Shown here in pieces: positions 28,469-59,491 of a stretch of 59,491 nt of DNA. Under the pieces are notes generated by a model, which had not been told where the DNA came from, did no database searches, and saw nothing but the letters and a program-made list of their open reading frames with translations. Position numbers and translations under genes: made by a program. Within the stretch, counting starts at the first letter, position 1, and every line of letters starts with the position of its first letter. This DNA is from an uncultured Anaerolineaceae bacterium (lineage in GTDB: Bacteria > Chloroflexota > Anaerolineae > Anaerolineales > E44-bin32). The stretch spans positions 1 to 59,491 of the forward strand of contig CAZJUE010000001.1 in assembly GCA_964549025.1 (NCBI GenBank). Direction: 5' to 3'.

Positions 28469-29200
28469 ATGGGCCCAGCTGACATAACCATCGGCCTGGC
28501 GGCATTGGCCGGATTGGCTTCTTTCCTTTCTCCGTGCGTGCTGGCCTTGGTGCCGGCCTACGTGGGCTACCTCGGTGGCCGGTCGGTGACTCCTGAGGGA
28601 GTGACGGTTGAGAATCGCTGGACCACCTTCAGCCACGGGCTGGCGTTCGTATCGGGCTTCAGCGTGGTTTTCATTGGGCTGGGGCTGAGCGCCTCGGCGC
28701 TGGGCAGCTTGATTTTCGAGTACCGCTCGCTGGTGGCACGGATCGGCGGCGTGGTGGTGGTGTTGTTTGGGCTGCACACCATCGGGGTGATCAACATTCC
28801 GCTGTTGGACTATGACACCCGTCGCCAGTACGCGCCCAACCCTGGGCTGGGCTACCTGTCCTCGGCCTTGATGGGCGTGTTCTTTTCGGCCGGATGGGCG
28901 CCCTGTGTCGGGCCGGTGCTGGGGGCGATCCTTACCTTGGCGCTGAACAGCGCCAACCTGCAGCTGGGGGCCGTGCTGCTCACCGCATACTCTATTGGCC
29001 TGGCGGTGCCCTTCCTGTTGGCCGCTCTCGGGATCGGACGCATCGCTGAATTGATGCGCCGCTACAGCAAGACCATCCGCTACCTGTCGATTGCCACCGG
29101 AGTGGTGTTGGTGATCGTCGGGGTGTTGCTGGCCAGCGGCCGCCTGGAGCAGTTCTTCGCCCGCTTCTCCTCTACCTTCTTCATCGACTTCGGTCTGTAG
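28469..29200 (+). CDS. ccdA: Cytochrome c biogenesis thiol-disulfide transporter CcdA
   Basis: Six TM helices with FLSPCVLALVP and SAGWAPCVGP cysteine motifs. Confidence 0.85.
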   Translation: MGPADITIGLAALAGLASFLSPCVLALVPAYVGYLGGRSVTPEGVTVENRWTTFSHGLAFVSGFSVVFIGLGLSASALGSLIFEYRSLVARIGGVVVVLFGLHTIGVINIPLLDYDTRRQYAPNPGLGYLSSALMGVFFSAGWAPCVGPVLGAILTLALNSANLQLGAVLLTAYSIGLAVPFLLAALGIGRIAELMRRYSKTIRYLSIATGVVLVIVGVLLASGRLEQFFARFSSTFFIDFGL

Positions 29201-36403: not shown

Positions 36404-37642
36404 CTATTCATTGCCAGTTCGCCTTCTCACCCAGAGCGATAAGTGGGATGGCTGCATGGTTTCCTGAGCGGTCTCCAATAGCGCCGATTGCATGAGCTCC
36501 AGATCCACCTCCTCGCGCAGGCGAGCCGAAAGCTCGTCCAGCACTCCTTGTGCGTCATACTTGGCCCGATTGAATCGGCGATCGACCGCGTTTTGCACCC
36601 GAAGGCGTAATGGGTTGAACAAGGCAGCCACAACCAGCGTCGAAACCACGACTCCGAACTGGCTCTGGAACGGAAGCAGCTGTTGCGCCAGCGTTACGGA
36701 GCCAGCGAAAACCGCGGCCAAGAGACTGACGACGATTGCATACGCCGCGGTGCGAGAAATGATCCGGTCGATGTCGTAAAGCCGGTATTTAAGGATGGCG
36801 ATCCCGATGGTGGTGGGCAGGCCGACGGACACAAAGATCAATAGGACCGCGTCGAGCTGCCCAGCTGCGGTAAATCCAAATACTGCTCGGGCCACAGTCG
36901 TCAGGAGCAAGGGCGCGATACCTGCGGTGGCGACAAAGAGGACCCATTTGATCTGCTGTCGAGCGTCGCCGACCGATTGCCGGTAGCGCCTGAGCAAGCC
37001 AACCAGCGACAGCACAACTGCCAGAGCCAACAGCGGCTCCACCGCCGAGCCTACGGCGGTGTTGATACGCTCGACCGCGGGAAGGTGGAGCGGATTGCTT
37101 GCACTCAGCAGGCATTCGGTGACAACTCCCTCCGTCCACACGGGCTCAACGCACACGGTTGACGTTCCGAACGCAGGGAGCAAAAGATACAACAGAATCA
37201 GGACACCGTTCGCCCAAAGCACAATCCGCCATCGGCGACTGGGAAGCTGGCCGTCGGGGAACAGCAGCACGCCGGGTCCAAGGATCAGCAGAATCGACAG
37301 GGCATACAGCCACCCACCCGTCTGAATCAGAACGGCGGCCGCGGAATCGTTTCCCGCATGGGCCTGGAGTGGGGCCATCGTTTCAATCACGTTACCGATC
37401 GTCCCTGCTACCCCGAAAGCCAGGAAGATCCATCCCAGTGGATTCCACGGAAGTTTGATCGCAATCAGCCATCCCACCAACGGGAAGACCAAAAACGAAA
37501 GCGCGAACCCCACGTCAAATGCAGCTAGCGCCTGGGCGCCTTGCGATCCCAGGATGAAAACGAACGCCAGCCATGTCGTGACAACCGATACCAATAAAAG
37601 CGTGGCCAGCGCGCTCGTCCAGCGGCGGCGTGAGCTGCTCAT
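36404..37642 (-). CDS. Polytopic membrane protein, kinase-less sensor-like family (member 5)
   Basis: LLFPDGQLPSRRWR, ARQQIKWV, ILKYRLYDIDRIISRT and C-terminal FNPLRLRVQNAVDRRFNRAKYDA...ETMQPSHLSLWVRR. Strong SD AAGGAG. Confidence 0.7.
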   Translation of the reverse strand: MSSSRRRWTSALATLLLVSVVTTWLAFVFILGSQGAQALAAFDVGFALSFLVFPLVGWLIAIKLPWNPLGWIFLAFGVAGTIGNVIETMAPLQAHAGNDSAAAVLIQTGGWLYALSILLILGPGVLLFPDGQLPSRRWRIVLWANGVLILLYLLLPAFGTSTVCVEPVWTEGVVTECLLSASNPLHLPAVERINTAVGSAVEPLLALAVVLSLVGLLRRYRQSVGDARQQIKWVLFVATAGIAPLLLTTVARAVFGFTAAGQLDAVLLIFVSVGLPTTIGIAILKYRLYDIDRIISRTAAYAIVVSLLAAVFAGSVTLAQQLLPFQSQFGVVVSTLVVAALFNPLRLRVQNAVDRRFNRAKYDAQGVLDELSARLREEVDLELMQSALLETAQETMQPSHLSLWVRRRTGNE

Positions 37643-37775
37643 TACCGCTCCTTAAGCCAGAGCGCACCAAGCGAGAGGAGGATCGATCGCTCGAGGATCC
37701 CAAGCGGATCGATCATCCACGAGCGTTTGCGCGGGATTGCAGACCGAGGTCGAGAATCCATCCTCCGAACTCAAC

Positions 37776-38525
37776 TCACTGCTCGACGATAAGGGTGCCG
37801 CGCATCCCGGCTTCAGTATGACCGGGGATCGCACAGACGAACTCGTACCTGCCGGGCTGCGCCTCGAAGGTAACTGACAACTCGGCTCCGACCGGCACCC
37901 GCAGATCGACGCCCAGTTCTTCGATGGTGAAGGTGTGCCAGAACAAATCGTCATTGGCCATGGTCACTGTGATTTCCCCGGCCGGGGCAGCGATCTCGGA
38001 ATCAGAAAATGCAACGTTCTTAGCCAGCAGCAGAACGTCCCCGGTTGCCGGCTCTGGGCGCGCGGCGCTGTTGCCCCAGATTATCAACCCCAGCAGCAAC
38101 CCAATCGAAGCGATCAGCCCCATCCGCGGAGCGCTGGTGGACAGTGAGTTTTCGGCCACGAGGAATCCAACAGCGGATACCAGGCCTAGCAACGCGACTG
38201 CCGCCAGTACTGCGGAGGTCATCGTCGACGACAGTTCGGAACCGACGCGGATATTGGTTATCGCCGCAGTCAGCATGAAGAACAGGGTGATGGCGGATGC
38301 GGCGGCCAGGCCGACGGCCCCCAGCCGCCCTCTGCGTACCCGAGTCATCCAGGTTGCCGCCGCGAATCCGACGGTCACCACCCCGCCCTCCAGGTCACCG
38401 AGTCCCAAAGAGACCAGGCCCATGGTGCCGGCGGCCAGGATGCCGGCGATGGTCACCAGTCGCCGCCAGGTCAGTCCCTGACCGACCGGCTCCGGATCGA
38501 CGTTACGCTGCGTGGGAATGCTCAT
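37776..38525 (-). CDS. Membrane-anchored cupredoxin (type-1 copper) protein
   Basis: About 5 N-terminal TM helices, then a cupredoxin domain with ligand pattern FWHTF...FVCAIPGHTEAGM (His...Cys-x3-His-x4-Met). Confidence 0.75.
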   Translation of the reverse strand: MSIPTQRNVDPEPVGQGLTWRRLVTIAGILAAGTMGLVSLGLGDLEGGVVTVGFAAATWMTRVRRGRLGAVGLAAASAITLFFMLTAAITNIRVGSELSSTMTSAVLAAVALLGLVSAVGFLVAENSLSTSAPRMGLIASIGLLLGLIIWGNSAARPEPATGDVLLLAKNVAFSDSEIAAPAGEITVTMANDDLFWHTFTIEELGVDLRVPVGAELSVTFEAQPGRYEFVCAIPGHTEAGMRGTLIVEQ

Positions 38526-39097
38526 GGTTGGGTACCTTTCGGTTCAAGCTCTCGAATCCAGAGCGAGAGGTGCGCCGGCTGCAGACCCAGAAAGAAGACC
38601 ACATCACTGGAGAAGATCAGCGAGGTTGCCCGCAGCAACCCACGCGCGGCCGGCAGGTCTGGTCGCCGGAGGTATGCGAATACCGCCATCGCCAGCATGT
38701 AGATCAGGAACAGGTAGCCAGGCCAGTTGGTCAGCAGGCTCGGAAGCAGATTGCGCGCTGCCAGCCGATGGGAGAGCTCGATGAACTCGGATTCGCGATC
38801 CAGCAAATAGGCAAGCTCGACCGGCGGCTGCGCCGTGCCTGGCATTGGGCGGGCCAGCAACGATTCAATTGATGGACCGTTCACTGCAACTATTCGATCA
38901 CGCCGCTGTAGCGGCGATCGCTGGTCTAGGATCTCACCGACGTACAAGCCCTGACCTTCCCGCGGTTCCCTCTGCAGGTCGAGCAGCACCCCATCTCCTG
39001 GCAGCAGTACTCTTGCACCGACGTAGATTGCGCTTGGAAGCACCAAGGCGACGCTCAATACGATCAGCCAGCGACTAGCTGAGGGGGCCGCGTTCAT
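38522..39097 (-). CDS. Short member or derivative of the sensor-like membrane family (member 4)
   Basis: N-terminal TM helix plus a PDZ-like stretch (YVGEILDQRSPLQRRDRIVAVNG). Retains the FAYLRRPD motif and the terminal LQPAHLSLWIRE tail. ATGA overlaps at both ends. Confidence 0.5.
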   Translation of the reverse strand: MNAAPSASRWLIVLSVALVLPSAIYVGARVLLPGDGVLLDLQREPREGQGLYVGEILDQRSPLQRRDRIVAVNGPSIESLLARPMPGTAQPPVELAYLLDRESEFIELSHRLAARNLLPSLLTNWPGYLFLIYMLAMAVFAYLRRPDLPAARGLLRATSLIFSSDVVFFLGLQPAHLSLWIRELEPKGTQP

Positions 39098-39972
39098 TGA
39101 CCGATAGCTGGATCACCAGCATTGCCCCGCAGCCAGAGCGATACAAGGGTGGGCTGCATAGTCTCCTGCCCTGTATTCAGCAGGGACGACTGCATTTCTG
39201 TCAGGTCCACTTCGTCTCGCACCGATTCGCCAAAGGCGCTCAAGGTCTGCGCCGCGTCGTAATCCGCGCGGAAGAATCTCCGATTCACCACCGTTTGTAT
39301 CCGCTGGCGCAGCGGATTGAAGAGCGCCGCGATCAGGCCAATGAGCAGAGCCGCCAGCTGCGCAACCGTCCCCGGAGAGGACTCCATGCTGGGCACCAGC
39401 TGCTCCAACAATGGATCAGCAAACGCGAGCAACGCCAAGGGAAATGCCAGGTAGCGGCCCCAGTCGGGGACGAAGCGGCCGTCTGGAAACAAGAAGATCA
39501 TCAGAATGATCAGCCCAGAGCCAATTGCGCTCAGCGTGTTGTAGAGCGGCGCCAGCGCCGGGGTCTGCTCCGACAAGATGGAGACGTTGTCCGAGATCCC
39601 GTTGATTCCAACCGCAATTAAGGCCATTGAAGCCAGCAATCCGATCCAGTCATCCGACCGGCGCAGATAGATCACTACCCCCAGGCCTGCCCAGGTGAGC
39701 AGCAGCAACTCGGAAGTGGGCAGGAAGCTGGCGTAGAAATCGTGAGAGACCCCCAGCTCTTCGAGCACCGCAAGTTCTTGAGCGGCGAGCTGGAAGGCAG
39801 TGCAATCGTCGCCGCTGCAGAGCTCCTGGTAGTTGGCGATGCTTACAGGACAGGCCGCGACAAAGACCGCGAAGTAGATCACTGCCAGGAGAATCCAAAG
39901 CAGGCGCGCTGACCCCAGCGCCAGCCCAGGCGGCCGCGCGCTCTCAGAGGGACTGGAGATCCAATTGCTCAA
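39094..39972 (-). CDS. Polytopic membrane protein, kinase-less sensor-like family (member 3, short)
   Basis: IYLRRSDDW, LFPDGRFVPDW and C-terminal FNPLRQRIQTVVNRRFFRADYDA...ETMQPTLVSLWLR. Lacks the QQTKW and YRLWDID middle section. TTG start overlaps the upstream stop. Confidence 0.62.
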   Translation of the reverse strand: MSNWISSPSESARPPGLALGSARLLWILLAVIYFAVFVAACPVSIANYQELCSGDDCTAFQLAAQELAVLEELGVSHDFYASFLPTSELLLLTWAGLGVVIYLRRSDDWIGLLASMALIAVGINGISDNVSILSEQTPALAPLYNTLSAIGSGLIILMIFLFPDGRFVPDWGRYLAFPLALLAFADPLLEQLVPSMESSPGTVAQLAALLIGLIAALFNPLRQRIQTVVNRRFFRADYDAAQTLSAFGESVRDEVDLTEMQSSLLNTGQETMQPTLVSLWLRGNAGDPAIGQ

Positions 39973-41273
39973 TGCAGCTGGTGTCCACTTCGCCGGTCCC
40001 TCAGCCAGATGGAAGTTTCGACCGGCTGGACGGTATCCTCAACCACGTCCAGCACTGCCTCGCTCACGTCTGCCAATCCGAAAGCCTGCTGTATCGTGCC
40101 TCCAAACTGCTTAAGGGCAAGATCGGCGTCGTATCGGGTCCGGTAGAAGCGCCGGTCGACCGCAGCCTGGATTCGTCGTCGAAGCGGATTGAAGAATGCG
40201 GCGACGATCAGGGTAGAGCTCACGATCGCCAGATTACTGGTACCCGCAGCTTCGGTTGGAACTATGTCTCCCAGCACGCCGCGAAAGATCTGTTCCAGCG
40301 CAAGGACGCTGATGGCGTAGATGCCGGCCAACAATACGGTCAGGGCTCCGTATCCGAGCGTCCGGCTGACCAGCCGATCGATGTCCCACAGGTGGTGGCG
40401 CGCCACCGAAACCCCGATGGCCAGCGGCATCAGCGCAAACGAGCCCAGGCTGACGGGTACGACCAGGAGTTCCCAGAACAGGCTGGGTATTCCGGGCGAG
40501 CGAAGCACCGGGAGGACGATGATTGGAAGCCACATCGCAGCCAGGGTGAGGGTCATGGCCGCGAACCCATAGACCACCCACTTGGTCTGCCGTCTCTGTG
40601 CCTGATCCCGGGTACCTCTCAGCCGTTGAAGCTGAGCCAGGGCTGCAGCGCCAAACCAGGCTATTAGCCCCAGAAACGGAATAAAGTCGTTGAGCTCCTT
40701 CAGGTCCGGTTTGCGGGTGGGTGGCGGCGCCACGATCCAGCTGAGCGCGAAGAGCAGCGAAACCACCGCAAAGCCCTTGGTCCAGCGCGGCACGAAACGA
40801 CCATCGGGAAACAGGCAGATCGAAATTACCACCGAGCTCCACGCCAACGCTCGGTGCACGAGCACCGGTATGTGCCAGGCTGGGTGCAGTTCGCGCAACG
40901 AGGTGGCGAAATCGCTCATGGACAATCCGAAGGCCAGCAGCGCAAACGAAACAAAGAGCACCATCCAGTCGTCCGATTTGCGTGCGAACAGCAATACACC
41001 GAAGGCCATCAGAGCCACCGCGAATACGACCTCAATCCCCATGATGTAGGAGGCCAGGAATCGCACCGAAAGCCCGAGCCGGTCGAGGGCTTCCGCATAA
41101 TCGGTCGCCAGGATCGAGCCGCTGTTTAGATCAGTCCAGCGCGCCGGCAGACCGATCAGAAAGATTGTCAGCGTCAGCGCGGCAGCAGCCAGCCAGCCGA
41201 GCCGCGCCCGGGTCAGTGCCGGTCGGCGAAGGTTGGTGATGGATGCTCGAGTGCGGGGGGCTTTATCGGCCAT
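39969..41273 (-). CDS. Polytopic membrane protein, kinase-less sensor-like family (member 2)
   Basis: LFARKSDDW, LFPDGRFVPRW, RRQTKWV, HHLWDIDRLVSRT and FNPLRRRIQAAVDRRFYRTRYDA...DTVQPVETSIWLR. Confidence 0.7.
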   Translation of the reverse strand: MADKAPRTRASITNLRRPALTRARLGWLAAAALTLTIFLIGLPARWTDLNSGSILATDYAEALDRLGLSVRFLASYIMGIEVVFAVALMAFGVLLFARKSDDWMVLFVSFALLAFGLSMSDFATSLRELHPAWHIPVLVHRALAWSSVVISICLFPDGRFVPRWTKGFAVVSLLFALSWIVAPPPTRKPDLKELNDFIPFLGLIAWFGAAALAQLQRLRGTRDQAQRRQTKWVVYGFAAMTLTLAAMWLPIIVLPVLRSPGIPSLFWELLVVPVSLGSFALMPLAIGVSVARHHLWDIDRLVSRTLGYGALTVLLAGIYAISVLALEQIFRGVLGDIVPTEAAGTSNLAIVSSTLIVAAFFNPLRRRIQAAVDRRFYRTRYDADLALKQFGGTIQQAFGLADVSEAVLDVVEDTVQPVETSIWLRDRRSGHQLH

Positions 41274-41283
41274 CGCGGTCCGC

Positions 41284-42570
41284 CTATTGCCGTGAGTCCG
41301 GACCGGACTGCTTCAGCCAGATCGAGCTCCGAACCGGCTGTACCGTCTCCTCCACCACTCCGAGCAGTACCTGGCTGAGCTCTTCCAGTTCGACCTCGTC
41401 GCGCACGGTGCCACTGAATCCCGCCAAGGCGCGCGAGGCATCGTAGCGCCGCCGGTAAAAGCGGCGGTCGATGACGTGCTGGATGCGGTTGCGCAATGGA
41501 TTGAAAACCGCCGCGATGCCAAGCGTAGTGGCTACGATGGCCAACTGGTCACCCTGGCCGGTCAGCAGCCGGAACAAGTTGGTGAGCAGCGCCACCCCGG
41601 CCAAGTACAGCACCGCCAGCGTGCCGGTGAGCGCGCCGTATACCAGGGTGCGGTTGATGATGACGTCGATATCCCACAGGCGATAGCGCAAGATGGCGAT
41701 CACGAAGGAGATGGGGAAGATCAGCGTCGCCAGGATGAATCCGGTCAGCCCGATCAGTCGGGCCGCCAGCGTGATGGCAAACAGCGAAGCCCCGACTCGC
41801 TGATAGAAGATGTTGGGAACGGTGAGCCCGCCCAGCTGAGGAAGGATTACGAATGGCAGGAAGTAGCCGAAGGGGCCCATCACCGCTAGCACCAGGCCCA
41901 AGATCGCCCATTTGGTCTGCTGTCGCTGGAGCGGGCTGGAAACTGATAAGTACCGGTGGAACTGAGCGTACAGCCCGGCGCCCGACCAGATCACCAGCAC
42001 CAGCAGCTGCAGCGGCACCGGCCAGGCGGCGACGCTGAGCGGGGATTCGGGGAGGAAGATGGCGAAGGCCATGATCAGTCCCCAGGACCCCACCATGCCG
42101 GCGGTCCAGCGCGGCACGAAACGGCCGTCGGGGAACAGGTAAAGCAAGCTGAGGCCAGAAACCAATCCGATATAGGTTACACAGCGCACCAGGAACAGCC
42201 AGACCGGCAGCACCTCCCCGGCCGGATACATCAGCGACAGCGGGATCCAGGCGCCATTGCTGACCAGCGCCAGCGCCAAAGCCAGCGCCATCCACTCGTC
42301 TGATCGTCGCAAGAAGACGACCACGCCGATCACCAGGTGGAAGGTCACCATCAACAGGTACAACGCCGTCAGATAGGCGCCGTACCCTTCCGGCGTTAGA
42401 CCCAGGTCCTCCACCGAGCGCAGGTCAACCCCGGTCGACAGCCGCCGGAAGAGGCCGGGAATGCCAAAAGCCACCAATCCAACGATTAGCAGCGTCAGCC
42501 CGATCCACAACACGCGGGCCGCGCGCCGCAAGGCTACGGTGTTTTGCTGGTGCAGTGGCTCGGCAGTCAA
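41284..42570 (-). CDS. Polytopic membrane protein, kinase-less sensor-like family (member 1)
   Basis: VFLRRSDEW, LFPDGRFVPRW, QRQQTKW, ILRYRLWDIDVIINRT and FNPLRNRIQHVIDRRFYRRRYDA...ETVQPVRSSIWLK. Confidence 0.7.
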   Translation of the reverse strand: MTAEPLHQQNTVALRRAARVLWIGLTLLIVGLVAFGIPGLFRRLSTGVDLRSVEDLGLTPEGYGAYLTALYLLMVTFHLVIGVVVFLRRSDEWMALALALALVSNGAWIPLSLMYPAGEVLPVWLFLVRCVTYIGLVSGLSLLYLFPDGRFVPRWTAGMVGSWGLIMAFAIFLPESPLSVAAWPVPLQLLVLVIWSGAGLYAQFHRYLSVSSPLQRQQTKWAILGLVLAVMGPFGYFLPFVILPQLGGLTVPNIFYQRVGASLFAITLAARLIGLTGFILATLIFPISFVIAILRYRLWDIDVIINRTLVYGALTGTLAVLYLAGVALLTNLFRLLTGQGDQLAIVATTLGIAAVFNPLRNRIQHVIDRRFYRRRYDASRALAGFSGTVRDEVELEELSQVLLGVVEETVQPVRSSIWLKQSGPDSRQ

Positions 42571-42587
42571 ATCAGATCCCCGATCGG

Positions 42588-43451
42588 CTATTGCAGAGTC
42601 TGCAAGTACATCCAGACGGCAGCCAGCTCATCGTCGGTCATTTCGCCCACCAGCTTCCAGGGCATCAGGCGCGGGTCAAGATCCTCTCCTCGCGGAGTCT
42701 CCCCGGTGCGCAACGCGTGGACGAAATCGGACTGGCTCCAATCTGCCAGATCGCCGCTCTGGGTGAGGTCCAGGCCAGCCCCGGCAGTCGGACCACCACG
42801 CAAGTCGGCACCGTGGCAGATAGCGCAGGCTGTGGCGAGATACTCCCCGTACTCGACGGTAGCGCCGGGTTGTGGCGCGGTCGGGCGCTCGGCGGCGTGA
42901 TCGATGGTCTCAGCCGGGATCAACGAATCGTCGGTGAGCAAAGTGAGGTAAGTCAGCAATCCCAGATTCCTCTCTGGCAGCTGATTGGCGACCGGCGGCA
43001 AGCTCTTGAGGTAGGCGATGATCGCTCCGAGATCACTGTCGCTGATGTAGTAGTAGGAGTTGGAGGGCATCACGATCAGCGGCCGTTCCTCGGGATCCAG
43101 GCCATGTCGGATGGCACGGACCCAGTCCAGGTCGCTGAAAGAGGAACCAACCCCGCCAGCGCCGGAGGTGAGGTTCTTGGCCGAAACCTGTCCGCTAAGC
43201 GGATCATCCAGATATAGCTCACCCTGCAGTTGATCGCCGTGGCACAGCCGGCAGAAGAAGACCGAGCTGACCAGGTGCTGACCGCGCTCGATCGCGGCCT
43301 GGTCGGTTGGAACCGTGATCGGCTCGACCGAAACGGAATGGCGAAGCTCGAGCCGTTGCTCAACGTCGTTCCGGATCACCGTGGTGGCCAGCAGCAGCAG
43401 CGCGGCGGCCGCTACGGCAAGAATCAGCAAATAGCGAAGCAGCCTGCGCAC
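42588..43451 (-). CDS. Dihaem c-type cytochrome with N-terminal membrane anchor
   Basis: Two CxxCH motifs (CRLCHG, CAICHG), each followed by a candidate Met ligand (VMPS, LMPW) and an AYL/MYL..L tail. N-terminal hydrophobic anchor. Confidence 0.85.
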   Translation of the reverse strand: MRRLLRYLLILAVAAAALLLLATTVIRNDVEQRLELRHSVSVEPITVPTDQAAIERGQHLVSSVFFCRLCHGDQLQGELYLDDPLSGQVSAKNLTSGAGGVGSSFSDLDWVRAIRHGLDPEERPLIVMPSNSYYYISDSDLGAIIAYLKSLPPVANQLPERNLGLLTYLTLLTDDSLIPAETIDHAAERPTAPQPGATVEYGEYLATACAICHGADLRGGPTAGAGLDLTQSGDLADWSQSDFVHALRTGETPRGEDLDPRLMPWKLVGEMTDDELAAVWMYLQTLQ

Positions 43452-43455
43452 TCGG

Positions 43456-43878
43456 CTAGGCCTCAGCCTGGCCGGTCAGCCCGGCGGCCTGAGTGCTTTC
43501 TTGCGGTTGCTCCAGCAGCAGCTCGCGCGCTCGTTTGGCGTGCAGGTAGGACACGTAGGTCAAGATGGAAGCGTTCAGCGGGTGCAAGGCTGCCAGGTAG
43601 GGCAGCTCATCCCGCAACCCGGGCAGCACGGTCTGCACGATGTGTAAAACCAGCACTGCCACCAACCAGCCCACCAGCCTGCGGGGGATCCAGCGCAGCA
43701 ATCCCAGCACGATCAGCACCAGTCCTGGCAGCTCGGAAGACCAGCCGAACTCCGTGTGGGTCTGCCACAGGCTGTTCCGAACAAACAGGGACATGCCGGC
43801 CATCACGATGGTGGCCAGCAGCCAGATCACCATCAGCCAGGCAAACCCAATGTAAAGGTAGCTCAAAATCCTGCGCAT
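43456..43878 (-). CDS. Small integral membrane protein (4 TM), unknown function
   Basis: 140 aa with four hydrophobic segments and a conserved-looking LHPLNA. Lies 4 nt upstream of the cytochrome c gene. Possibly DUF6220-like (memory only). Confidence 0.55.
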   Translation of the reverse strand: MRRILSYLYIGFAWLMVIWLLATIVMAGMSLFVRNSLWQTHTEFGWSSELPGLVLIVLGLLRWIPRRLVGWLVAVLVLHIVQTVLPGLRDELPYLAALHPLNASILTYVSYLHAKRARELLLEQPQESTQAAGLTGQAEA

Positions 43879-43946
43879 CGTTCATTCCTCCCAAGGCCCT
43901 TTGCGGGAGCCTCTGCATTCTAAACCGCTGATTCAGGCGGAGGCGT

Positions 43947-44435
43947 TCAGAACGGCTTGAACATCATCAGCCATAAGATCACCAGCGTGCCGCCAAACCC
44001 CAGAACTGCCAGCTGAACCGGCCGCAAGGAGGCCTTGACGGCCAGGATCTCTGGCTCGCTGGCCGGTTCCAGTGCCGGCTGATCGCCGGAGCCCTCGAAG
44101 TACGGCAGCCCGATTACCTTCCGTAGCTTGTGGTAGTGCGCCCGACTCGACCATCCCATGTAAATGCTCATTCCGATCAAGATTAGCAGCGAAGTCCAGA
44201 TCCAGCCCTGGCCCCACCAGTGACCCATGAAGCCGCCGACTACCCCGCCGACCAGCAGCAGCAGCAATGACAGTGCGAACATTGGCCAGCTGTAACTGGA
44301 AAGCTCGAGCAACGCTCGCACTCGATCGAGACTGCGCTCCCGCTGGATTTGAAAAGTCATGACAGTGGTGCCGCCATGAGCCAGCATAAAGCTCATGACG
44401 CCCAGCACATGCAGAAAGATAACCCACCGATACAT
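43947..44435 (-). CDS. DUF2269-like integral membrane protein, paralog 2
   Basis: 163 aa, 4 TM. ATG 44435 (MYRWVIFLHV) chosen because the longer ORF to 44726 overlaps the upstream paralog. C-terminus ILWLMMFKPF is identical to the paralog. Confidence 0.6.
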   Translation of the reverse strand: MYRWVIFLHVLGVMSFMLAHGGTTVMTFQIQRERSLDRVRALLELSSYSWPMFALSLLLLLVGGVVGGFMGHWWGQGWIWTSLLILIGMSIYMGWSSRAHYHKLRKVIGLPYFEGSGDQPALEPASEPEILAVKASLRPVQLAVLGFGGTLVILWLMMFKPF

Positions 44436-44449
44436 CACCACTCTCCCAT

Positions 44450-44944
44450 TTAGAACGGTTTGAACATCATCAACCACAGGATTGCTGCCAGGCCCACTAC
44501 GCCGATACCCGTGAGCAATACCGGACGCAGCCTGGCCTGTAGCGTGGCAACTTCCTCCGGCGACGCAGCTACCGATTTGCGGTCTTCCTTCTTCTGCGGC
44601 GCTTCGTATGCGTCTGGATCCAGCGCGTGGGCGACCCGCATGTTGCCCATTCGACCGATCACCGACATCAGTACTCCCACCACCACAAAGAGGCCGAGCG
44701 ATAGCCAGACCCAGCGCTCTTCCCACCAGCTGCCCATGAAGCTCAGCATGATACCGCTGATCAGTAGAGTGAGAATCGGCACGCCCATGCCACGCTCGCC
44801 GACCTCCCGGACCGCCAGAATCGCCCGGACCCGTTGCGGATTTTGCTCACGCTTCAGCCCGAACATTGCGCTGGCCGTAGCGCCGTGCACCAAAAAAAAG
44901 GCGATCGCGCTGGCAACATGAACGTACAAGATGAGTTGATACAC
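44450..44944 (-). CDS. DUF2269-like integral membrane protein, paralog 1
   Basis: 164 aa, 4 TM. GTG start is preceded by AAGGGAG. C-terminus ILWLMMFKPF. Confidence 0.6.
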   Translation of the reverse strand: MYQLILYVHVASAIAFFLVHGATASAMFGLKREQNPQRVRAILAVREVGERGMGVPILTLLISGIMLSFMGSWWEERWVWLSLGLFVVVGVLMSVIGRMGNMRVAHALDPDAYEAPQKKEDRKSVAASPEEVATLQARLRPVLLTGIGVVGLAAILWLMMFKPF

Positions 44945-52569: not shown

Positions 52570-53718
52570 ATGCAGAGTGAACAATTCCCTGAACCCGATC
52601 AGCACAGTCCCGCTCGCATGCGGCGGGCGCGCAGACGGTTAAGCCAGCTCCAAGCGGACGAGCGCGAAGCGTACCTGGACGGCCTGGCAGCCGCAGTCAC
52701 ACCGGGTTTCAGTTACTTCCTGTATGCAATATTGGCCGGCTTGCTGCTCGGCCTGGGATTCGCCTTCGATCAGCGGGCGCTGCTGGTGGCCGCTGCACTG
52801 TTTGCGCCGCGCCTCGGACCGCTGGCCGGCTTGTCGTTGGCGGCCGTCTCTGGATCGGTGCGGTTCTTTATGCGGATGGCATTGGCGCTGCTGGTCGGCC
52901 TGGCGCTGGTCGGCGCAGCTGCGGCGTTGGTGTTCTGGCTGGGAGTTGGTCAGGAATCCGAAGGGCTGCTGATCTATGAACATGACAGCTTGAATCTGAT
53001 CGACTTCGGCTTGCTGCTGGTTGGCGCTGTGCTGTTGACCGCCCGGTTGGCACGGTCTGAACGGGTGGCCGGATTGCCCGGCGCGGCGGCTGCCTACGAA
53101 CTGCTGCTGCCGCTGGGAGCGGCGGTGGCCGGCTACTTCCAATCTGACTTCGAGTTGTTGCAGGGTGCAGCGCTCACGTTGGGTTTGCACCTGAGTTGGG
53201 CGCTGGCGGTGGGCTTATTCACACTGGTGCTGATGGGCTTCCGACCGCTCACCGGCAGCGGCCGTTCGCTGGGGGCCGCGATCGGCATGATCGGCCTTTT
53301 GACCATCGCCAGCGCAGCTGGGCTGGGTACCTCGGTATTGGCCTCGCTGCCAACCCCGACTCCTACGCCGACTGCCACCCCGACCTCGACCAATACTCCG
53401 ACACCGTCTCTCACGCCCACGGCGACCGCTACCCCAACGCTGACCCCTACCGCCACGCCAACCGCTACCGATACAGCCACTCCCACCCCTACGCCGCCTT
53501 CAGCGCTGGTGCTTGGTACCGGGCTGCAGGGCGCCATCATCCGGGATGCACCGGCTGGAAGCCCGGTGGATCTGGTTTCTGAGAACGAACGCCTGCTGGT
53601 GCTCGACGGCCCGGAGATCGTCGAACTGCAGGAGTGGTGGCTGGTCCGCAAGGAAGATGGCACCGAAGGCTGGTTAGTCGGGCGCTATCTGGCGACGCTG
53701 ACACCTGCGGCGCCGTGA
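52570..53718 (+). CDS. DUF389-like membrane protein with Pro/Thr linker and C-terminal SH3b-like domain
   Basis: Multi-TM region with LFAPRLGPLAGLSLA, a PT-rich linker and a C-terminal GAIIRDAPAGSPV...WWLVRKEDGTEGWLVGRYL (bacterial SH3-like). Confidence 0.6.
   Translation: MQSEQFPEPDQHSPARMRRARRRLSQLQADEREAYLDGLAAAVTPGFSYFLYAILAGLLLGLGFAFDQRALLVAAALFAPRLGPLAGLSLAAVSGSVRFFMRMALALLVGLALVGAAAALVFWLGVGQESEGLLIYEHDSLNLIDFGLLLVGAVLLTARLARSERVAGLPGAAAAYELLLPLGAAVAGYFQSDFELLQGAALTLGLHLSWALAVGLFTLVLMGFRPLTGSGRSLGAAIGMIGLLTIASAAGLGTSVLASLPTPTPTPTATPTSTNTPTPSLTPTATATPTLTPTATPTATDTATPTPTPPSALVLGTGLQGAIIRDAPAGSPVDLVSENERLLVLDGPEIVELQEWWLVRKEDGTEGWLVGRYLATLTPAAP
53351..53499 (+). repeat. Low-complexity Pro/Thr-rich coding repeat (linker)
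   Basis: Translates to PTPTPTPTATPTSTNTPTPSLTPTATATPTLTPTATPTATDTATPTPTPP. Confidence 0.9.
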
Positions 53719-53835: not shown

Positions 53836-53864
53836 TTGACAGTCACTGGAAGAGACAGCATAAT
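53836..53864 (+). promoter_or_regulatory. Sigma-70-type promoter about 320 nt upstream of the SBP gene
   Basis: TTGACA (53836-53841), 17-nt spacer, CATAAT (53859-53864). Confidence 0.5.
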
Positions 53865-54192: not shown

Positions 54193-56709
54193 ATGAAGAG
54201 CAAGTGGTTGAAGTGGTTCGCATTGTCAGTCATGCTGGCGCTTTTAGCGGCCGCGTGTGGTGGTACTGCCACGCCGGAAGAACCCGCCCCACCGCCGCCG
54301 GAAGGCCCGCCACCGCCGCCCGCAGAGGGGGCGATGATCGACTGCATGGGAGCCTCTTCGGGTGACCAGGTCACCGTAATGTATCAGTGGTCTGGCACAG
54401 AGGAAGAGCGGATCAATGCCATCCTGGCGCCGTTCGTAGAAGAGTGTGGCGTCGAAGTCGTTTCAGAGTCGACCCGCGACGCGGCGGTGCTGGACACCCG
54501 AGTGCAAAGTGATCCGCCGGACGTGTTGTTCTGGCCCTCGACCGCGCCAGCGCTGCTGTATACCGATCAGATGCAGGATCTGGGATCGGTCGGCGCCCAC
54601 GCAGAGAACTACGCTGACTTCTGGATCGAGCAAGGAACCTTTAGCGGTCGCTGGCTGGTTTTGCCGGCCAAGGCCGACATCAAGACCATCATCTGGTACA
54701 GCCCGATCCAATTCGAGACCTTTGGCTACGAAGTGCCAACAACCTTCGAAGAATTGGACGCCCTGGTTGAGCAGATGGTGGCGGACGGCAACACGCCGTG
54801 GAGCATGGGCTTCGAGAGCGGTGCAGCCACTGGTTGGACCGGCTCGGACTTCATCCAGGACCTGCTGCTGACCCAGCAGGGGCCGGAGTACGTGATGGGG
54901 CTGATCGACGGCTCGGTCTCGTACGATGACGCTGGCGTGGCAGAAGCCTATGAAACCTACGCAGCCTGGGCCTCCGATCCGGATTACACGGTAGGCGGCT
55001 CCACCGGGACGGTCAACACTGGTTTCCTGGATGCCATCTACCAGGTGTTCTCGGATCCGCCGGAGGCCATGATGGTGAAGCAGTCCGGCTTTGCCGGGGG
55101 CGAGGTCGTTTCTCAGTTCCCGGACCTCGAGTACGGGACCGACTTCGACTTCTTTGCCTTCCCTGGTGCCCAGGGCATGCAGGGCGGAGCTGACTACATG
55201 ATGGCGTTCGGCGACTCGCCGGCTGCGCATGCTCTGGTCGGGTATCTGACCAGCGAAGCGGGCGGCGAGGCCTGGGCGCAGGCCGGCTTCGATCTGTCGC
55301 CCAACAACGGCGCCACCGGAAACTACGCCGACGAGCAGTTGGCCAAGAAGGGCGATGCGCTGGCCGGAGCCAGCGGTTTCACTCCAGACCTGGGCGATAC
55401 GATCCCGGCACCATTCGGCCAAGCCGAGTGGAAGGCGATCGTGGATGTCGTCCAGGGCGGCGACGTCGATGCCGCGCTGACCGCCGCAGCGGTATCACAG
55501 CGCGCCGGGCTGGCGCTGGCGCCCTCGATCGACTGCATGGGCGTCTCGGCAGGGGACACTCTGTCGGTGATGTACCAGTGGTCGGGTGCCGAGGAAGAGA
55601 AGATCAACTCGATCTTTGCGCCGTTCGTGGAAGAATGTGGCGTCGAGATCGTGGCTGAGTCGACCCGCGACGCAGCGGTGTTGGACACCCGCGCCAACAG
55701 TGATCCTCCGGATCTGCTGTTCTGGCCATCCTCCGCACCGGCGTTGCTGTATACCGATCAAATGCAGGATCTGGGCTCGGTCGGCGCCCATGAAGAGAAC
55801 TACGCCGACTTCTGGATCGAGCAGGGAACGGTCGACGGTCGTTGGCTGGTGCTGCCGGCCAAGGCCGACATCAAGACCATCATCTGGTACAGCCCGATCC
55901 AGTTCGAGACCTTCGGTTACGGTGTTCCGACGACGTTTGATGAGCTCGACGCGCTGGTGGAGCAGATGGTGGCCGATGGCAACATCCCCTGGAGCATGGG
56001 CTTTGAGAGCGATGCGGCTACCGGATGGACCGGCTCGGACTTCATCCAGGACCTGATGCTGACCCAGCAAGGGCCGGAGTACGTGATGGGGTTGATCGAC
56101 GGCTCGGTTTCCTACGACGATGCCGGGGTGGTTCAGGCCTACGAGACCTACGCCGCCTGGGCTTCGGATCCGACCTACACGGTGGGTGGCGCAACCGGGA
56201 CGGTCGAAACCGGCTTCCTGGACGCCATCTACAAGGTGTTCTCGGATCCGCCCGAGGCCATGATGGTCAAGCAGTCCGGCTTCGCCGGAGGCGAGGTCGT
56301 TGCTCAGTTCCCGGACCTCGAGTACGGAACCGACTTCGACTTCTTCGCCTTCCCGGGCGCCCAGGGCATGCAGGGCGGCGCCGACTACCTGATGGTGTTC
56401 GGCGACTCGCCCGCAACCCAGGCGATGCTGGCCTATCTGACCAGCGCCGAGGGTGCCCGAACTTGGGCGCAAGCAGGCTTTGACCTCTCGCCCAATAAGT
56501 GGGCGGCCGGTCAGTACGCCGACGAGCAGCTGGCCAAGAAGGGCGATGCGCTTGCCGGAGCGACCGGTTTCACCCCGGACCTGGGCGACACGATCCCGGC
56601 TCCGTTCGGCACCGCCGAGTGGAGTGCGATCATCGATGTGGTTCAGGGAGCGGACCCGGCCGAAGCACTGGCGGCAGCAGCCGCAGCGCAACAGCAGGCG
56701 CTTCAGTAA
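54193..56709 (+). CDS. Lipoprotein with two tandem CUT1-type ABC substrate-binding domains
   Basis: Signal peptide plus lipobox LLAAAC and a Pro-rich tether, followed by two full-length family-1 SBP units (residues 49-445 and 446-838) that align over their whole length. Confidence 0.85.
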   Translation: MKSKWLKWFALSVMLALLAAACGGTATPEEPAPPPPEGPPPPPAEGAMIDCMGASSGDQVTVMYQWSGTEEERINAILAPFVEECGVEVVSESTRDAAVLDTRVQSDPPDVLFWPSTAPALLYTDQMQDLGSVGAHAENYADFWIEQGTFSGRWLVLPAKADIKTIIWYSPIQFETFGYEVPTTFEELDALVEQMVADGNTPWSMGFESGAATGWTGSDFIQDLLLTQQGPEYVMGLIDGSVSYDDAGVAEAYETYAAWASDPDYTVGGSTGTVNTGFLDAIYQVFSDPPEAMMVKQSGFAGGEVVSQFPDLEYGTDFDFFAFPGAQGMQGGADYMMAFGDSPAAHALVGYLTSEAGGEAWAQAGFDLSPNNGATGNYADEQLAKKGDALAGASGFTPDLGDTIPAPFGQAEWKAIVDVVQGGDVDAALTAAAVSQRAGLALAPSIDCMGVSAGDTLSVMYQWSGAEEEKINSIFAPFVEECGVEIVAESTRDAAVLDTRANSDPPDLLFWPSSAPALLYTDQMQDLGSVGAHEENYADFWIEQGTVDGRWLVLPAKADIKTIIWYSPIQFETFGYGVPTTFDELDALVEQMVADGNIPWSMGFESDAATGWTGSDFIQDLMLTQQGPEYVMGLIDGSVSYDDAGVVQAYETYAAWASDPTYTVGGATGTVETGFLDAIYKVFSDPPEAMMVKQSGFAGGEVVAQFPDLEYGTDFDFFAFPGAQGMQGGADYLMVFGDSPATQAMLAYLTSAEGARTWAQAGFDLSPNKWAAGQYADEQLAKKGDALAGATGFTPDLGDTIPAPFGTAEWSAIIDVVQGADPAEALAAAAAAQQQALQ
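54337..56706 (+). repeat. In-frame tandem duplication, unit 1191 bp (397 codons)
   Basis: ATCGACTGCATGGG occurs at 54337 and again at 55528. The copies are collinear and many of the differences fall at synonymous third positions. Confidence 0.9.
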
Positions 56710-56780: not shown

Positions 56781-57695
56781 GTGGCTGCCCCAAGGATCAT
56801 GCAGCAGGGACAGCGGATTCCCTGGCTGTACGCGCTCCCCGCGCTCATCATCATCTTTGTCTTTATCGTCTATCCCACGGTCAACACCGGCTACTTGAGC
56901 CTGCTTGATCGCCGGAGCGAGGGCCCGGCGACGAACGACTGCTCTGAGGGGGATCCGTGCTGGGGGATCCTTGAGAACTACCGTTATGCACTAACCAACC
57001 CGGAGATGACCACCGCGCTTCGCAACAACGCCCTGTGGTTGTTGGTGATGGTCCCGGGAACGGTAGCCATTGGTTTGGTGATCGCTGTCCTGGCGGATCG
57101 AGTCAGATACGAAGCGTTTGTCAAATCGATCATCTTCATGCCCATGGCGATCTCGTTTATCGGGGCCGGCGTGATATGGCGCTTCATGTATGCCATCGAA
57201 GCCGGATCCGGCGATCAGTGGGCATTGTTGAACGCCATCATCGTGGGGGTCGGGCTGGATCCGGTGCCGTTCATCAGCACCCGCGGCATCAACAACTTCG
57301 CCCTGATGGCGGTGGGGATCTGGCTGTGGGCCGGCTTCTCGATGACCATCCTCTCAGCGGCGCTGAAGAGCTTGCCCGGTGAGGTGTTGGAGGCCGCGCG
57401 GGTCGACGGGGCGACGGAGTGGCAGGTGTTTTGGCGCATCATGATCCCGATGATCATGCCCACCATCACGGTGGTCACCACAACCATGATCATCATCGTG
57501 CTCAAGATCTTCGATATCGTTTTTGTGATGACCAACGGCAACTTCGGGACTGAAGTAATCGCTAACCGAATGTTCAACTTGATCGTCACCGACACAGGCC
57601 GCTCGACTGCCATCGCTGTGCTGCTACTGGTGCTGACCATCCCGGTCATGATCTTCAATGTGCGGCGCTTCCGTGAGCAGGAGGCGATCCGATGA
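56781..57695 (+). CDS. Carbohydrate ABC transporter permease (MalF/CUT1 type)
   Basis: Six TM helices and EAA loop LEAARVDGATEWQVFWRIMIPMIMP. GTG 56781 is preceded by AAGGAGGAG. Confidence 0.85.
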   Translation: MAAPRIMQQGQRIPWLYALPALIIIFVFIVYPTVNTGYLSLLDRRSEGPATNDCSEGDPCWGILENYRYALTNPEMTTALRNNALWLLVMVPGTVAIGLVIAVLADRVRYEAFVKSIIFMPMAISFIGAGVIWRFMYAIEAGSGDQWALLNAIIVGVGLDPVPFISTRGINNFALMAVGIWLWAGFSMTILSAALKSLPGEVLEAARVDGATEWQVFWRIMIPMIMPTITVVTTTMIIIVLKIFDIVFVMTNGNFGTEVIANRMFNLIVTDTGRSTAIAVLLLVLTIPVMIFNVRRFREQEAIR

Positions 57696-58912
57696 GACCG
57701 TTTGAGCGTCTGAACGCCATCTTTCGTCGACTGCCCACTCACCTGGCGCTGGTAATCTTGATCGTAGCCTGGATAACGCCCACAGTCGGCGTCTTCGTTT
57801 CATCTTTCCGGTCGCGAGAAGCAGTGCGTACCTCTGGTTGGTGGAATGTCTTCCTGCCGCAAGAGGTCGAGGGCGAGGCGGAGTACACCACCTATTGCGC
57901 CGAGTGCCACGGCGCGGACGGTGCCGCGATCGCAGCCGCGGACCTGAGCGATCCCGCCATGGCTGCGGCGTACCCGCGCTCGAATCGGCTGCTGGTGGTG
58001 CTGCGGGCCGAAATCGATGGCCAGCCGCACTTGCAGGATCCGGCGCTGCCGGACGATCCAAATCAGGCGCTGGAATTGCTGGCGCCCATCCTGAGCTACA
58101 TGCAAACCCTTTCGGGCGGTCCGGCCGGGGGAGGAGTGAACGAGCTTAGCGTAGGTAACTATGCCGACGCGTTGGTCGGCTACAAAGGCACCAAGGATTA
58201 CCTCTCCGACTGCGAGGAAGGCGTCGAAAGTACGTTGGCCAAATACGATTGTGACGCGGGTGACGTGCTCAGTCCGGAGGGGATGGGGCGAGCGTTCTTC
58301 AATACCGTACTGGTAACCGTTCCGGCCGCCACCCTGCCGATCATTTTCGCTGCGCTAGCCGGCTACGCCTTCGCATGGATGGACTTCAAGGGGCGGTTCT
58401 GGGTGTTTTCGCTACTGGTTGGACTGCAAATCGTCCCACTTCAGATGGCGCTGGTACCGATCGCACAGCTGTACACTGATCTTGGATTGCAGAACACCTT
58501 CCTGGGCATCTGGCTGTTCCATGCCGGCTTTGGACTGCCTTACGCCATCTATTTGATGCGCAACTTCCTGGGCAGCCTGCCGACCGAGATCTTTGAGTCG
58601 GTTTATATCGATGGTGCCAGCCACTGGACCGCGTTCTGGAACCTGGCGGTGCCACTCTCGATTCCGGCCATCGCCTCCTTGGCGATCTACCAGTTCATCT
58701 GGATCTGGAATGATTTCCTGGTTGCCAAGATCTTCCTGACCGGCAGTCCAGTGTTGACGGTCCAAATCACCAACCTGATTGATCCGCGGGGCGCCAACTG
58801 GCATATCCTGACCGGCGCCGCCTTCCTATCCTTCCTGGTTCCGATGGCGGTGTTCCTGGGGCTGCAGCGCTTCTTCGTGCGCGGCCTGACCGCCGGAGCG
58901 GTAAAGGGATAA
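57692..58912 (+). CDS. Carbohydrate ABC transporter permease (MalG type) with cytochrome c-like insert in loop 1
   Basis: EAA loop FESVYIDGASHWTAFWNLAVPLSIP and a MalG-like VGNYADAL...FFNTVLVTV. An extra roughly 95 aa after TM1 contains YTTYCAECHGADG. ATGA overlap with the upstream permease. Confidence 0.85.
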   Translation: MRPFERLNAIFRRLPTHLALVILIVAWITPTVGVFVSSFRSREAVRTSGWWNVFLPQEVEGEAEYTTYCAECHGADGAAIAAADLSDPAMAAAYPRSNRLLVVLRAEIDGQPHLQDPALPDDPNQALELLAPILSYMQTLSGGPAGGGVNELSVGNYADALVGYKGTKDYLSDCEEGVESTLAKYDCDAGDVLSPEGMGRAFFNTVLVTVPAATLPIIFAALAGYAFAWMDFKGRFWVFSLLVGLQIVPLQMALVPIAQLYTDLGLQNTFLGIWLFHAGFGLPYAIYLMRNFLGSLPTEIFESVYIDGASHWTAFWNLAVPLSIPAIASLAIYQFIWIWNDFLVAKIFLTGSPVLTVQITNLIDPRGANWHILTGAAFLSFLVPMAVFLGLQRFFVRGLTAGAVKG

Positions 58913-58935
58913 AGGCAGGCCTCGTTCCTATCAAA

Positions 58936-58968
58936 AAGCGCCTGGGGTCACCCAGGCGCTTTCGCTTT
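58936..58968 (+). terminator. Rho-independent terminator of the sugar ABC operon
   Basis: AAGCGCCTGGG-gtca-CCCAGGCGCTT followed by TCGCTTTC. Confidence 0.65.
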
Positions 58969-59081
58969 CAGCCAATACAGCACAATGCTCGATCTTCGGT
59001 AGAATCGCCTGACCGGCCCATAGGCACTTCCTGCCGGAGTGAAATCTCATTGTGAAAACGAATTTCCGACCCGCTGAGACC

Positions 59082-59491
59082 ATGATCCTGCTCGTCAGAT
59101 TGGGTTGGGCGGCCGCCGCACCACTGGCAGCCGGCTTATCCGGCAAGCTGAGCGACGAGCTTGCCTGGTTGATCGCCGGCTGGCTGGTGCTCTCCGTGGC
59201 GGCTCACTTGATCAGCCCGCGCTGGCCATTGCTGACTCCTGCGATCGACTTCGCCTTCGTGAGCACCGCGGTCATCCTGACTGGCCCGGCCGACAGCCCG
59301 CTGTGGTGGTCGCTGCTGGTGGCCGGAGGGTTGGCCGGGCTGCAGCACGGAACGCTGGCTGCGCTGGCGGTGCCCAGTCTGTCGCTGCTGGCGGTAATGG
59401 GTTACGAGTTGTTCGCCGGTACGGCGCAAGCCGAGCAGCTGGGGCCGCTGGGACGGGCCATGCTGGCGGTGCTGCTGCTCACGCCACTGAT
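59082..59491 (+). CDS. Polytopic membrane protein, 5' partial (runs off the window)
   Basis: Open frame from ATG 59082 (or GTG 59052) to the window end encodes consecutive hydrophobic helices (LAWLIAGWLVLSVAA, FAFVSTAVILTG, WWSLLVAGGLAGL). It is absent from the ORF track, probably because no stop lies in the window. Confidence 0.35.
   Translation, partial: MILLVRLGWAAAAPLAAGLSGKLSDELAWLIAGWLVLSVAAHLISPRWPLLTPAIDFAFVSTAVILTGPADSPLWWSLLVAGGLAGLQHGTLAALAVPSLSLLAVMGYELFAGTAQAEQLGPLGRAMLAVLLLTPL

Follow-up and report, generated by a model that had tools for sequence, protein, structure and literature searches.

Does a sugar importer of the Anaerolineae carry a haem in its membrane subunit, and if so, what could a haem do there? 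This question is raised by a permease gene close to the end of a 59,491-nucleotide stretch of DNA from an uncultured Anaerolineaceae bacterium (GTDB E44-bin32; contig CAZJUE010000001.1 of GenBank assembly GCA_964549025.1). The whole stretch was analysed and is referred to below as the window; the coordinates of the main features are given in Table 1. The initial annotation of the window had proposed that a cytochrome c-like domain with a CxxCH haem-attachment motif is inserted into the first extracytoplasmic loop of this MalG-type permease. The computational analysis described here agrees with that proposal, based on a match of the insert to the Pfam family PF13442, on profile-profile alignment (hhalign) and on the presence of CxxCH in 240 out of 240 full-length homologues.

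A MalG-type permease with an enlarged first loop

The protein is a CUT1 MalG-type permease of an ATP-binding cassette (ABC) importer, as identified by its membrane core, its coupling motif, its structural likeness to solved permeases and its operon. An EAA-type coupling motif (ESVYIDGASHW...PLSIPA), read from the translation of the open reading frame (ORF), is present in the core. A Foldseek search with the full-length AlphaFold2 (AF2) model retrieved SugB (8hpm_B, E 1e-6) and MalG (3puv_G, E 1.6e-6) with probability 1.0; this search returned MalG/SugB-type membrane cores only, and nothing on the insert. The NCBIfam models for archaeal GlcU, MalG and UgpE recognize the permease with E 3e-37 to 2e-21, under their equivalog cut-offs. 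Since these models (272-296 amino acids (aa) long) align to residues ~197-406 only, ~155 residues lie between the first and second transmembrane helices (TM1 and TM2), of which ~95 constitute the insert. Compared with ordinary MalG-type permeases, the protein has ~110-130 additional residues, which are found between TM1 and TM2, in line with the extra length between TM1 and the core that had been noted before. By homology with MalG, the topology of TM1 is predicted to be N-in, and the periplasmic TM1-TM2 loop of MalG places the insert, by analogy, in an extracytoplasmic loop.

The enlarged loop contains a second conserved part directly after the insert. Two cysteines in this segment, C174 (58211-13) and C187 (58250-52), are invariant in the full-length homologues (240/240), and N156, Y157, D159, Y164 and D191 show no or almost no variation. 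The segment is probably a disulfide-stabilized extracytoplasmic subdomain that adjoins the haem domain, with C174 and C187 as the predicted disulfide pair.

The insert resembles a class I cytochrome c domain

The haem-attachment motif lies within EAEYTTYCAECHGADGAA, in which C69, C72 and H73 are encoded by TGC (57896-98), TGC (57905-07) and CAC (57908-10), respectively. Among the ORFs of at least 70 aa in the six frames of the 59.5-kb window only two contain a CxxCH motif, namely the permease and a bona fide dihaem cytochrome c. Because of this scarcity and the invariance of the motif in the 240 homologues, the CxxCH in the permease sequence is not considered a chance occurrence.

When searched alone against Pfam, the insert matched PF13442 (Cytochrome_CBB3, E 3.5e-5) and PF00034 (E 0.003). 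Inserts of 45 family members were scanned singly, and all 45 matched PF13442 at E ≤ 0.01 (best E 1.9e-7) while 27 matched PF00034; no non-cytochrome family was found among the Pfam matches of these 45 inserts. The Pfam scans likewise gave no PAS or Cache match for the insert, only cytochrome c families. Profile comparisons point in the same direction. Among PDB sequences, the best matches of the insert profile are the haem domains of the cbb3 oxidase subunit CcoP (E 1.8e-6 to 5e-5). The profile also aligns with the second domain of the dihaem cytochrome encoded in the window, from the CxxCH up to the C-terminal YLQTL helix (E 5e-4), and, over 98 columns, with one canonical domain of P0147, a free cytochrome with five domains (hhalign probability 96%, E 2.7e-9). 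A word-indexed search with the insert alone, which is a short query, returned one fragment.

In the full-length AF2 model the insert is predicted with pLDDT (predicted local distance difference test) values of 77-90 and contains helices at residues 62-68, 70-73, 88-92, 97-105 and 123-140. In the order of its modelled elements, with one helix ahead of the CxxCH, short helices in the middle, then a hairpin and, at the C-terminus, a long helix, the insert fits a class I cytochrome. Judged from its sequence, the whole of a class-I-type cytochrome c domain is present in the insert, as a non-canonical variant of PF13442.

Candidate haem ligands

Each of the 240 full-length members of the family contains exactly one CxxCH, and the motif is likewise present in all 72 genomic orthologues. 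The aromatic residue that precedes the motif (Y65) is Y or F in 240/240 proteins, and G74 and the C-terminal helix are also retained. In canonical domains the distal ligand is the Met of a G-x-M-P loop (G-T-M-P or G-Q-M-P), which results in His/Met ligation. The insert lacks this Met: the position aligns to Q111 or P112, one or two residues before His113 in the sequence G-Q-P-H-L. His113 is kept in 239 of the 240 full-length proteins, after correction of two alignment shifts. The initial annotation had listed M90, H113 and M137 as possible sixth ligands, and only His113 withstands the comparison with homologues. M90 is found in 5/119 homologues and M137 in 93/240, and both are rejected on these grounds. 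With a conserved His next to the Met position and two variable methionines, His113 is the best candidate for the sixth ligand, and His/His ligation together with His73 is likely from these alignments.

Distribution of the family and selection on the insert

The close family comprises 6773 matches at E ≤ 1e-10. The best 120 of these share at least 66% identity with the permease and have lengths of 384-408 aa, or 403-408 aa in 119 cases. An exhaustive search with only the insert against 1.84 billion cluster representatives yielded 205 proteins with E ≤ 1e-3. Those that match best do so over residues ~42-147 of permease-like proteins, the same position as in the window permease, and the remainder are multihaem cytochromes that align chiefly around the motif. 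Three subgroups can be distinguished: the main type, subgroup B (P0155, 403 aa, with an insert that is 39% identical) and subgroup C (~394 aa, '...CASCHGPDGK...GQPHMG...'). About 75 of 120 subgroup C proteins have a precomputed PF13442 or PF00034 match. The invariance of the ligands spans the three subgroups, down to ~40% insert identity, and includes paralogous operons of one genome. In two loci of Anaerolineales genomes (L058 and L065, ~9.4-12.9 kb) operons of the main type and of subgroup C, both encoding a solute-binding protein (SBP), a MalF-like and a cytochrome-bearing MalG-type permease, are adjacent; their permeases are 40-50% identical and both carry the insert.

A scan of GTDB species representatives identified 96 encoding loci, all in Anaerolineae/Chloroflexota, and the number of representatives with the fusion is at least 96. 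The isolate Levilinea saccharolytica KIBI-1 is among the carriers. The architecture recurs in NCBI, JGI, ENA and Logan assemblies as well as in the isolate genome, with constant spacing to the core motifs. A MalG-type paralogue in one of the loci (L032, 30% identical) has no insert, indicating that the insert is clade-specific and not a general trait of the permeases of the organism.

For closely related gene pairs, the ratio of nonsynonymous to synonymous substitution rates (dN/dS) has a median of 0.10 in the insert, compared with 0.03 in the membrane core. The insert is clearly under purifying selection, though the constraint is weaker than in the core. A structural relic, which had been considered as an explanation of the insert, is disfavoured by this selection and by the invariance of the motif. 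It had also been asked whether homologues with the insert lack the Cys or His residues of the motif, and none of the 240 does.

Two further observations concern family members and their relatives. The two Levilinea permease genes (L012 and L013) are located near both ends of contig NZ_LGCM01000045.1 and are 100% identical at the nucleotide level (dN = dS = 0); one of the copies has two binding-protein genes upstream. They may result from a very recent duplication or represent an assembly repeat at the contig ends. In addition, three short metagenomic proteins (P0140, P0218 and P0175) consist of a signal-peptide-like N-terminus and a domain nearly identical to the subgroup C insert (…CAKCHGADGKALPQADL[ST]NP…GQPHMGD…). 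These could be stand-alone secreted domains, and thereby candidates for the donor lineage, or chimeric assemblies. As they come from short metagenomic contigs for which chimerism is possible, they are not used as support.

Genomic context of the permease

The permease gene is the last gene of a three-gene operon that encodes an SBP, a MalF-like permease and the MalG-type permease with the cytochrome insert. This gene order is retained in 80/80 loci. A LacI-family regulator is encoded upstream in 53 of the 80 loci and a TreT-type trehalose synthase nearby in nine. Relatives of the permease are named alpha-glucoside transport system permease by JGI, and among solved proteins the sugar-binding protein AcbH is nearest to the binding protein, though the match is weak (E 2e-8). 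The conserved order, the LacI regulator, TreT, the annotation and the AcbH match identify the operon as an ordinary carbohydrate-uptake operon apart from the insert. Its substrate is possibly trehalose or another alpha-glucoside.

The binding protein of the window begins with MKSKWLKWFALSVMLALLAAAC, which by sequence reads as a lipobox. Its two modules are 86% identical over 376 aa and both are complete. In every locus the permease genes are preceded by one binding-protein module, by two adjacent modules or by the same kind of fusion (836 aa in L082/L083). For a CUT1 binding protein a tandem fusion is itself unusual, and it may be related to the enlarged docking loop discussed below. The MalF-like partner contains neither a large P2 domain nor a CxxCH, and its stop codon overlaps the start codon of the MalG-type gene (ATGA at 57692-57695).

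Past the permease gene lies a terminator-like hairpin, which was not flagged by a consensus terminator scan and has a strong stem by direct folding. No gene for an ABC ATPase is found downstream of the permeases in the window (58913..59491). Since the operon ends at the hairpin without an ATPase gene, the transporter presumably uses a MalK/MsiK-type ATPase encoded elsewhere; a shared ATPase from another locus is plausible for CUT1 systems. A hydrophobic ORF begins at ~59054, past the hairpin. Upstream of the operon lies a gene for a DUF389 membrane protein (52570..53718, +) in which a long linker rich in Pro and Thr (…PTPTPTPTATPTSTNTPTPSLTPTATATPTLTPTATPTATDTATPTPTPP…) precedes a small C-terminal domain. 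In several related loci the same DUF389 gene also lies beside the operon, there downstream of it and on the opposite strand.

Table 1. Features of the window discussed in the text, with positions, strand and the basis of each assignment.
Feature	Position	Strand	Basis
MalG-type CUT1 ABC permease with cytochrome c insert	57692..58912	+	406-aa ORF
TM1, residues ~16-37	57737..57802	+	AF2 helix 16-37
Cytochrome c-type insert, residues 55-148, within the counterpart of the MalG P1 loop	57854..58135	+	PF13442, hhalign
CxxCH haem-attachment motif C69-A-E-C72-H73	57896..57910	+	Read from the DNA
His113, candidate distal (sixth) haem ligand	58028..58030	+	Conservation and alignment
Second part of the enlarged loop, residues 150-197	58139..58282	+	Conserved segment after the insert
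ABC-importer membrane core BPD_transp_1, residues 222-399	58355..58888	+	Pfam PF00528, E 5e-14
Sigma-70-like promoter candidate TTGACA-17-CATAAT, upstream of the operon	53836..53864	+	11/12 consensus; count not above shuffled expectation
Solute-binding lipoprotein, 838 aa, two fused CUT1-type modules	54193..56709	+	Single ORF
MalF-like partner permease, up to 323 aa	56724..57695	+	BPD_transp_1, E 7e-17
Terminator-like 12-bp hairpin, 23 nt past the stop codon	58935..58962	+	-25 kcal/mol, z = -6.3
CcdA-type thiol-reductant transporter, part of cytochrome c maturation	28469..29200	+	DsbD_TM, E 1.7e-14
Dihaem c-type cytochrome	42588..43451	-	Two CxxCH; PF00034 E 5e-13, PF13442 E 8e-12
ORF without Pfam match	41284..42570	-	Pfam scan
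ORF without Pfam match	39969..41273	-	Pfam scan
ORF without Pfam match	39094..39972	-	Pfam scan
ORF without Pfam match	38522..39097	-	Pfam scan
ORF without Pfam match	36404..37642	-	Pfam scan

Cytochrome c maturation and other redox genes

The window encodes both CcdA and a dihaem cytochrome c, as had been reported in the initial annotation, and the presence of the latter indicates that the organism makes c-type cytochromes. A Pfam scan of the neighbouring ORFs of the window identified no ResB/CcsA (ccsBA) cytochrome c synthase, leaving CcdA as the only maturation component detected. Levilinea encodes alternative complex III (ACIII), NirS and NrfA though it is described as an obligate anaerobe (PMC4653796).

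The dihaem cytochrome gene is part of a run of ORFs on the same strand (36404..44726, -), which also includes a gene for a protein with a cupredoxin domain (37776..38525). At least five further ORFs in the run, 191-434 aa in length, have no Pfam match at E ≤ 1e-3. The run may represent an uncharacterized extracytoplasmic redox module. In a sequence of 63% G+C some of its ORFs are possibly spurious.

A possible role of the haem domain and its alternatives

By sequence, selection has kept a class-I-type domain in the first outward loop of the MalG-type subunit of a LacI-regulated CUT1 importer across a large Anaerolineae family. To account for a cytochrome c domain in a sugar permease, we propose that its maturation takes place on the outer side of the membrane, through the System II/CcdA pathway, and that it would hold one covalent haem, ligated by His73 and by His113 in place of the usual Met. 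Bis-His c-type haems have a low potential, and some bis-His haem proteins shed the distal His on reduction, a behaviour that is exploited by haem sensors. The haem of the insert would similarly be of low potential, and ligand switching would be possible.

In the E. coli MalFGK2 transporter, the P1 loop of MalG cross-links to the binding protein throughout the transport cycle, and docking of the binding protein relies mainly on the large P2 domain of MalF (PMC6906923). The enlarged loop of the permease is equivalent to P1 and the partner permease has no P2. Together with the contact between MalG P1 and the binding protein, this suggests by analogy that the haem domain and the Cys174/Cys187 subdomain probably form the surface on which the binding protein, often duplicated, docks. 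A change in the redox state of the haem, or binding of O2, NO or CO, would then alter the ligation by His113 and the conformation of the loop. The altered loop would tune docking of the binding protein and tie sugar import to external redox conditions or gases without a signalling cascade. That the haem domain senses redox state or a gas at the docking loop and thereby tunes transport is a possibility that we favour tentatively, in view of the strictly conserved distal ligand other than Met on a haem predicted to face outward. Redox- or gas-tuned docking is the least certain step of the proposal.

Several observations weigh against this proposal. The data do not discriminate between sensing and a purely structural role, and the operon has no gene for a signalling or redox partner. 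The distal His is missing in P0389, the sole such case among the 240 family members (…INGQPQVQT…); this may be a sequencing error or a natural variant that is five-coordinate or uses another ligand. The insert of the window scores 24.5 bits for PF13442, below the gathering score of 27 bits. A Foldseek search of the PDB with a moderately confident AF2 model of the insert alone (pLDDT 71.5, predicted template modelling score (pTM) 0.32) gave no significant match, to cytochromes or to anything else; this model was made without haem, so that a weak model of the isolated domain is expected. Finally, attachment of haem is a prediction from sequence.

The main alternative, and a close rival to sensing, is that the haem is real and structural. 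The cytochrome fold would have been repurposed to stabilize an extracytoplasmic platform for the binding protein, in the role of MalF P2 and without sensing redox state or gases. Although we regard this as somewhat unlikely, much of the evidence is in keeping with it. The partner permease has no P2 and P1 is a known contact loop for the binding protein, and the context is one of ordinary sugar uptake with a LacI regulator and no redox partner. The strong conservation of the ligands is equally expected if the haem serves folding only. There is also a precedent in TfcP, a non-canonical cytochrome c with an accessory role that needs its haem for stability (PMC8833165). On the other hand, replacement of Met by a strictly conserved His (239/240) is an unexpected constraint for a purely structural haem, and many folds without haem could make a docking platform at lower biosynthetic cost.

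Class I cytochrome c domains are typically electron carriers, which raises a second alternative, in which the surface haem exchanges electrons with an extracytoplasmic sugar oxidoreductase, with Cys174/Cys187 or with external shuttles and transport is coupled to redox reactions. The invariant Cys pair ~60-100 residues downstream in the same loop could be a partner, and the dihaem cytochrome c and the cupredoxin-domain protein are other extracytoplasmic redox proteins encoded in the window. However, no oxidoreductase is conserved in or beside the operon in the 80 loci, the membrane core has no cofactor sites for carrying electrons across, and a lone His/His haem without partners is a poor wire. 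We consider electron transfer improbable.

The domain could also be a derivative that has lost its haem, in which Cys69, Cys72, His73 and His113 instead coordinate a metal or provide a redox-active disulfide. The predicted status of the haem, the sub-threshold Pfam score of the window protein and the isolated-domain model unlike cytochromes would agree with such a derivative, which is nevertheless very improbable: the CxxCH spacing in 240/240 proteins, the aromatic residue at Y65, G74 and the C-terminal helix are all typical of haem-binding domains, the hosts have maturation machinery, and the poor model is what AF2 is expected to produce without haem. An artefact, in which a frameshift, misassembly or chimeric contig joined a cytochrome fragment to a permease, has a negligible probability and is effectively ruled out, as nothing was found in its favour and the same architecture recurs across hundreds of independent assemblies and in an isolate.

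Novelty and significance

The initial annotation had called a haem domain in a carbohydrate ABC importer undescribed. This agrees with full-text literature searches, which retrieved no description of a cytochrome c domain in the permease of an ABC importer. In databases, the combination of PF00528 and PF13442 is already present in precomputed domain tables; the architecture has thus been recorded and apparently left uninterpreted. Public annotations of the relatives read 'ABC transporter permease subunit' or 'alpha-glucoside transport system permease' only. As far as found, and as predicted from sequence, the permease belongs to a known type of transporter with an unprecedented accessory domain that would bear a cofactor.

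ABC importers belong to the most thoroughly studied transporters. Their known regulation acts on the ATPase (e.g. EIIAGlc on MalK) or on transcription, and we know of no ABC importer with a covalent redox cofactor in a membrane subunit. It is conceivable, and in our view rather doubtful, that the permease is the first of this kind and that its His/His haem acts as a redox, O2 or NO switch on uptake at the protein level. If true, a haem domain at the docking loop would represent a new regulatory or structural principle for the ABC superfamily and a further case in which cytochrome c has been recruited beyond respiration. If the switch exists, facultatively anaerobic Anaerolineae would match carbon import to the external redox state without a signalling pathway. 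Anaerobic digesters, sediments and wetlands harbour Anaerolineae in great abundance, and the family occurs in at least 96 of their species-level lineages, often with two paralogous systems per genome. Because a cultured host is available in Levilinea saccharolytica KIBI-1, the hypothesis is directly testable. Surveys in which respiratory or extracellular electron-transfer capacity is estimated by counting CxxCH motifs would misread permeases with a cytochrome insert.

Comparison with known systems

The transporter resembles the MalG, SugB and AglG systems (TC 3.A.1.1) in its BPD_transp_1 core, its EAA motif, the association with a binding protein and a MalF-like partner, and the LacI regulator. 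It differs in its P1 loop, which is ~110-130 residues longer and contains the cytochrome c domain and the Cys-pair subdomain. To our knowledge, no characterized CUT1 permease contains these two domains in P1. The partner permease differs from MalF in the absence of P2.

The insert shares with class I domains of the PF13442 type (e.g. CcoP) a predicted N-terminal helix, an aromatic residue four positions before the CxxCH-G, the same distal-ligand loop and a predicted C-terminal amphipathic helix that ends with Y-[ML]-x-x-L. In contrast to CcoP-type domains, it contains G-x-P-H, with the His one or two residues past the Met position of G-x-M-P, and it is located between two TM helices of a transporter instead of in a respiratory protein.

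The P2 domain of E. coli MalF, an Ig-like domain in a periplasmic loop of a permease that recruits the binding protein (PMC6906923), is the proposed analogue of the insert as a folded docking domain. It is found in the other subunit, in a different loop and with a different fold, and it contains no cofactor. TfcP of the type IVa pili of Myxococcus resembles the insert in having a distal ligand other than Met and in acting as an accessory factor rather than as an electron carrier (PMC8833165); it differs in being a soluble stand-alone periplasmic protein with His/Cys ligation that serves an unrelated machine.

The closest functional analogy is offered by c-haem sensors. The PAS-like c-haem domains of GSU0582 and GSU0935 from Geobacter are involved in extracytoplasmic sensing of redox state or NO (PMC8396549), and haem-containing Cache domains are extracytoplasmic c-haem sensors of redox state or NO (PMC12889525). 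These domains have a single covalent haem at the outer face of a membrane protein, as is predicted for the insert. Their folds are PAS or Cache and their output is a chemoreceptor or a kinase, whereas the only other domain accompanying the insert is the core of an ABC permease. The insert is not a member of these PAS/Cache haem-sensor families, and it may work in a similar way.

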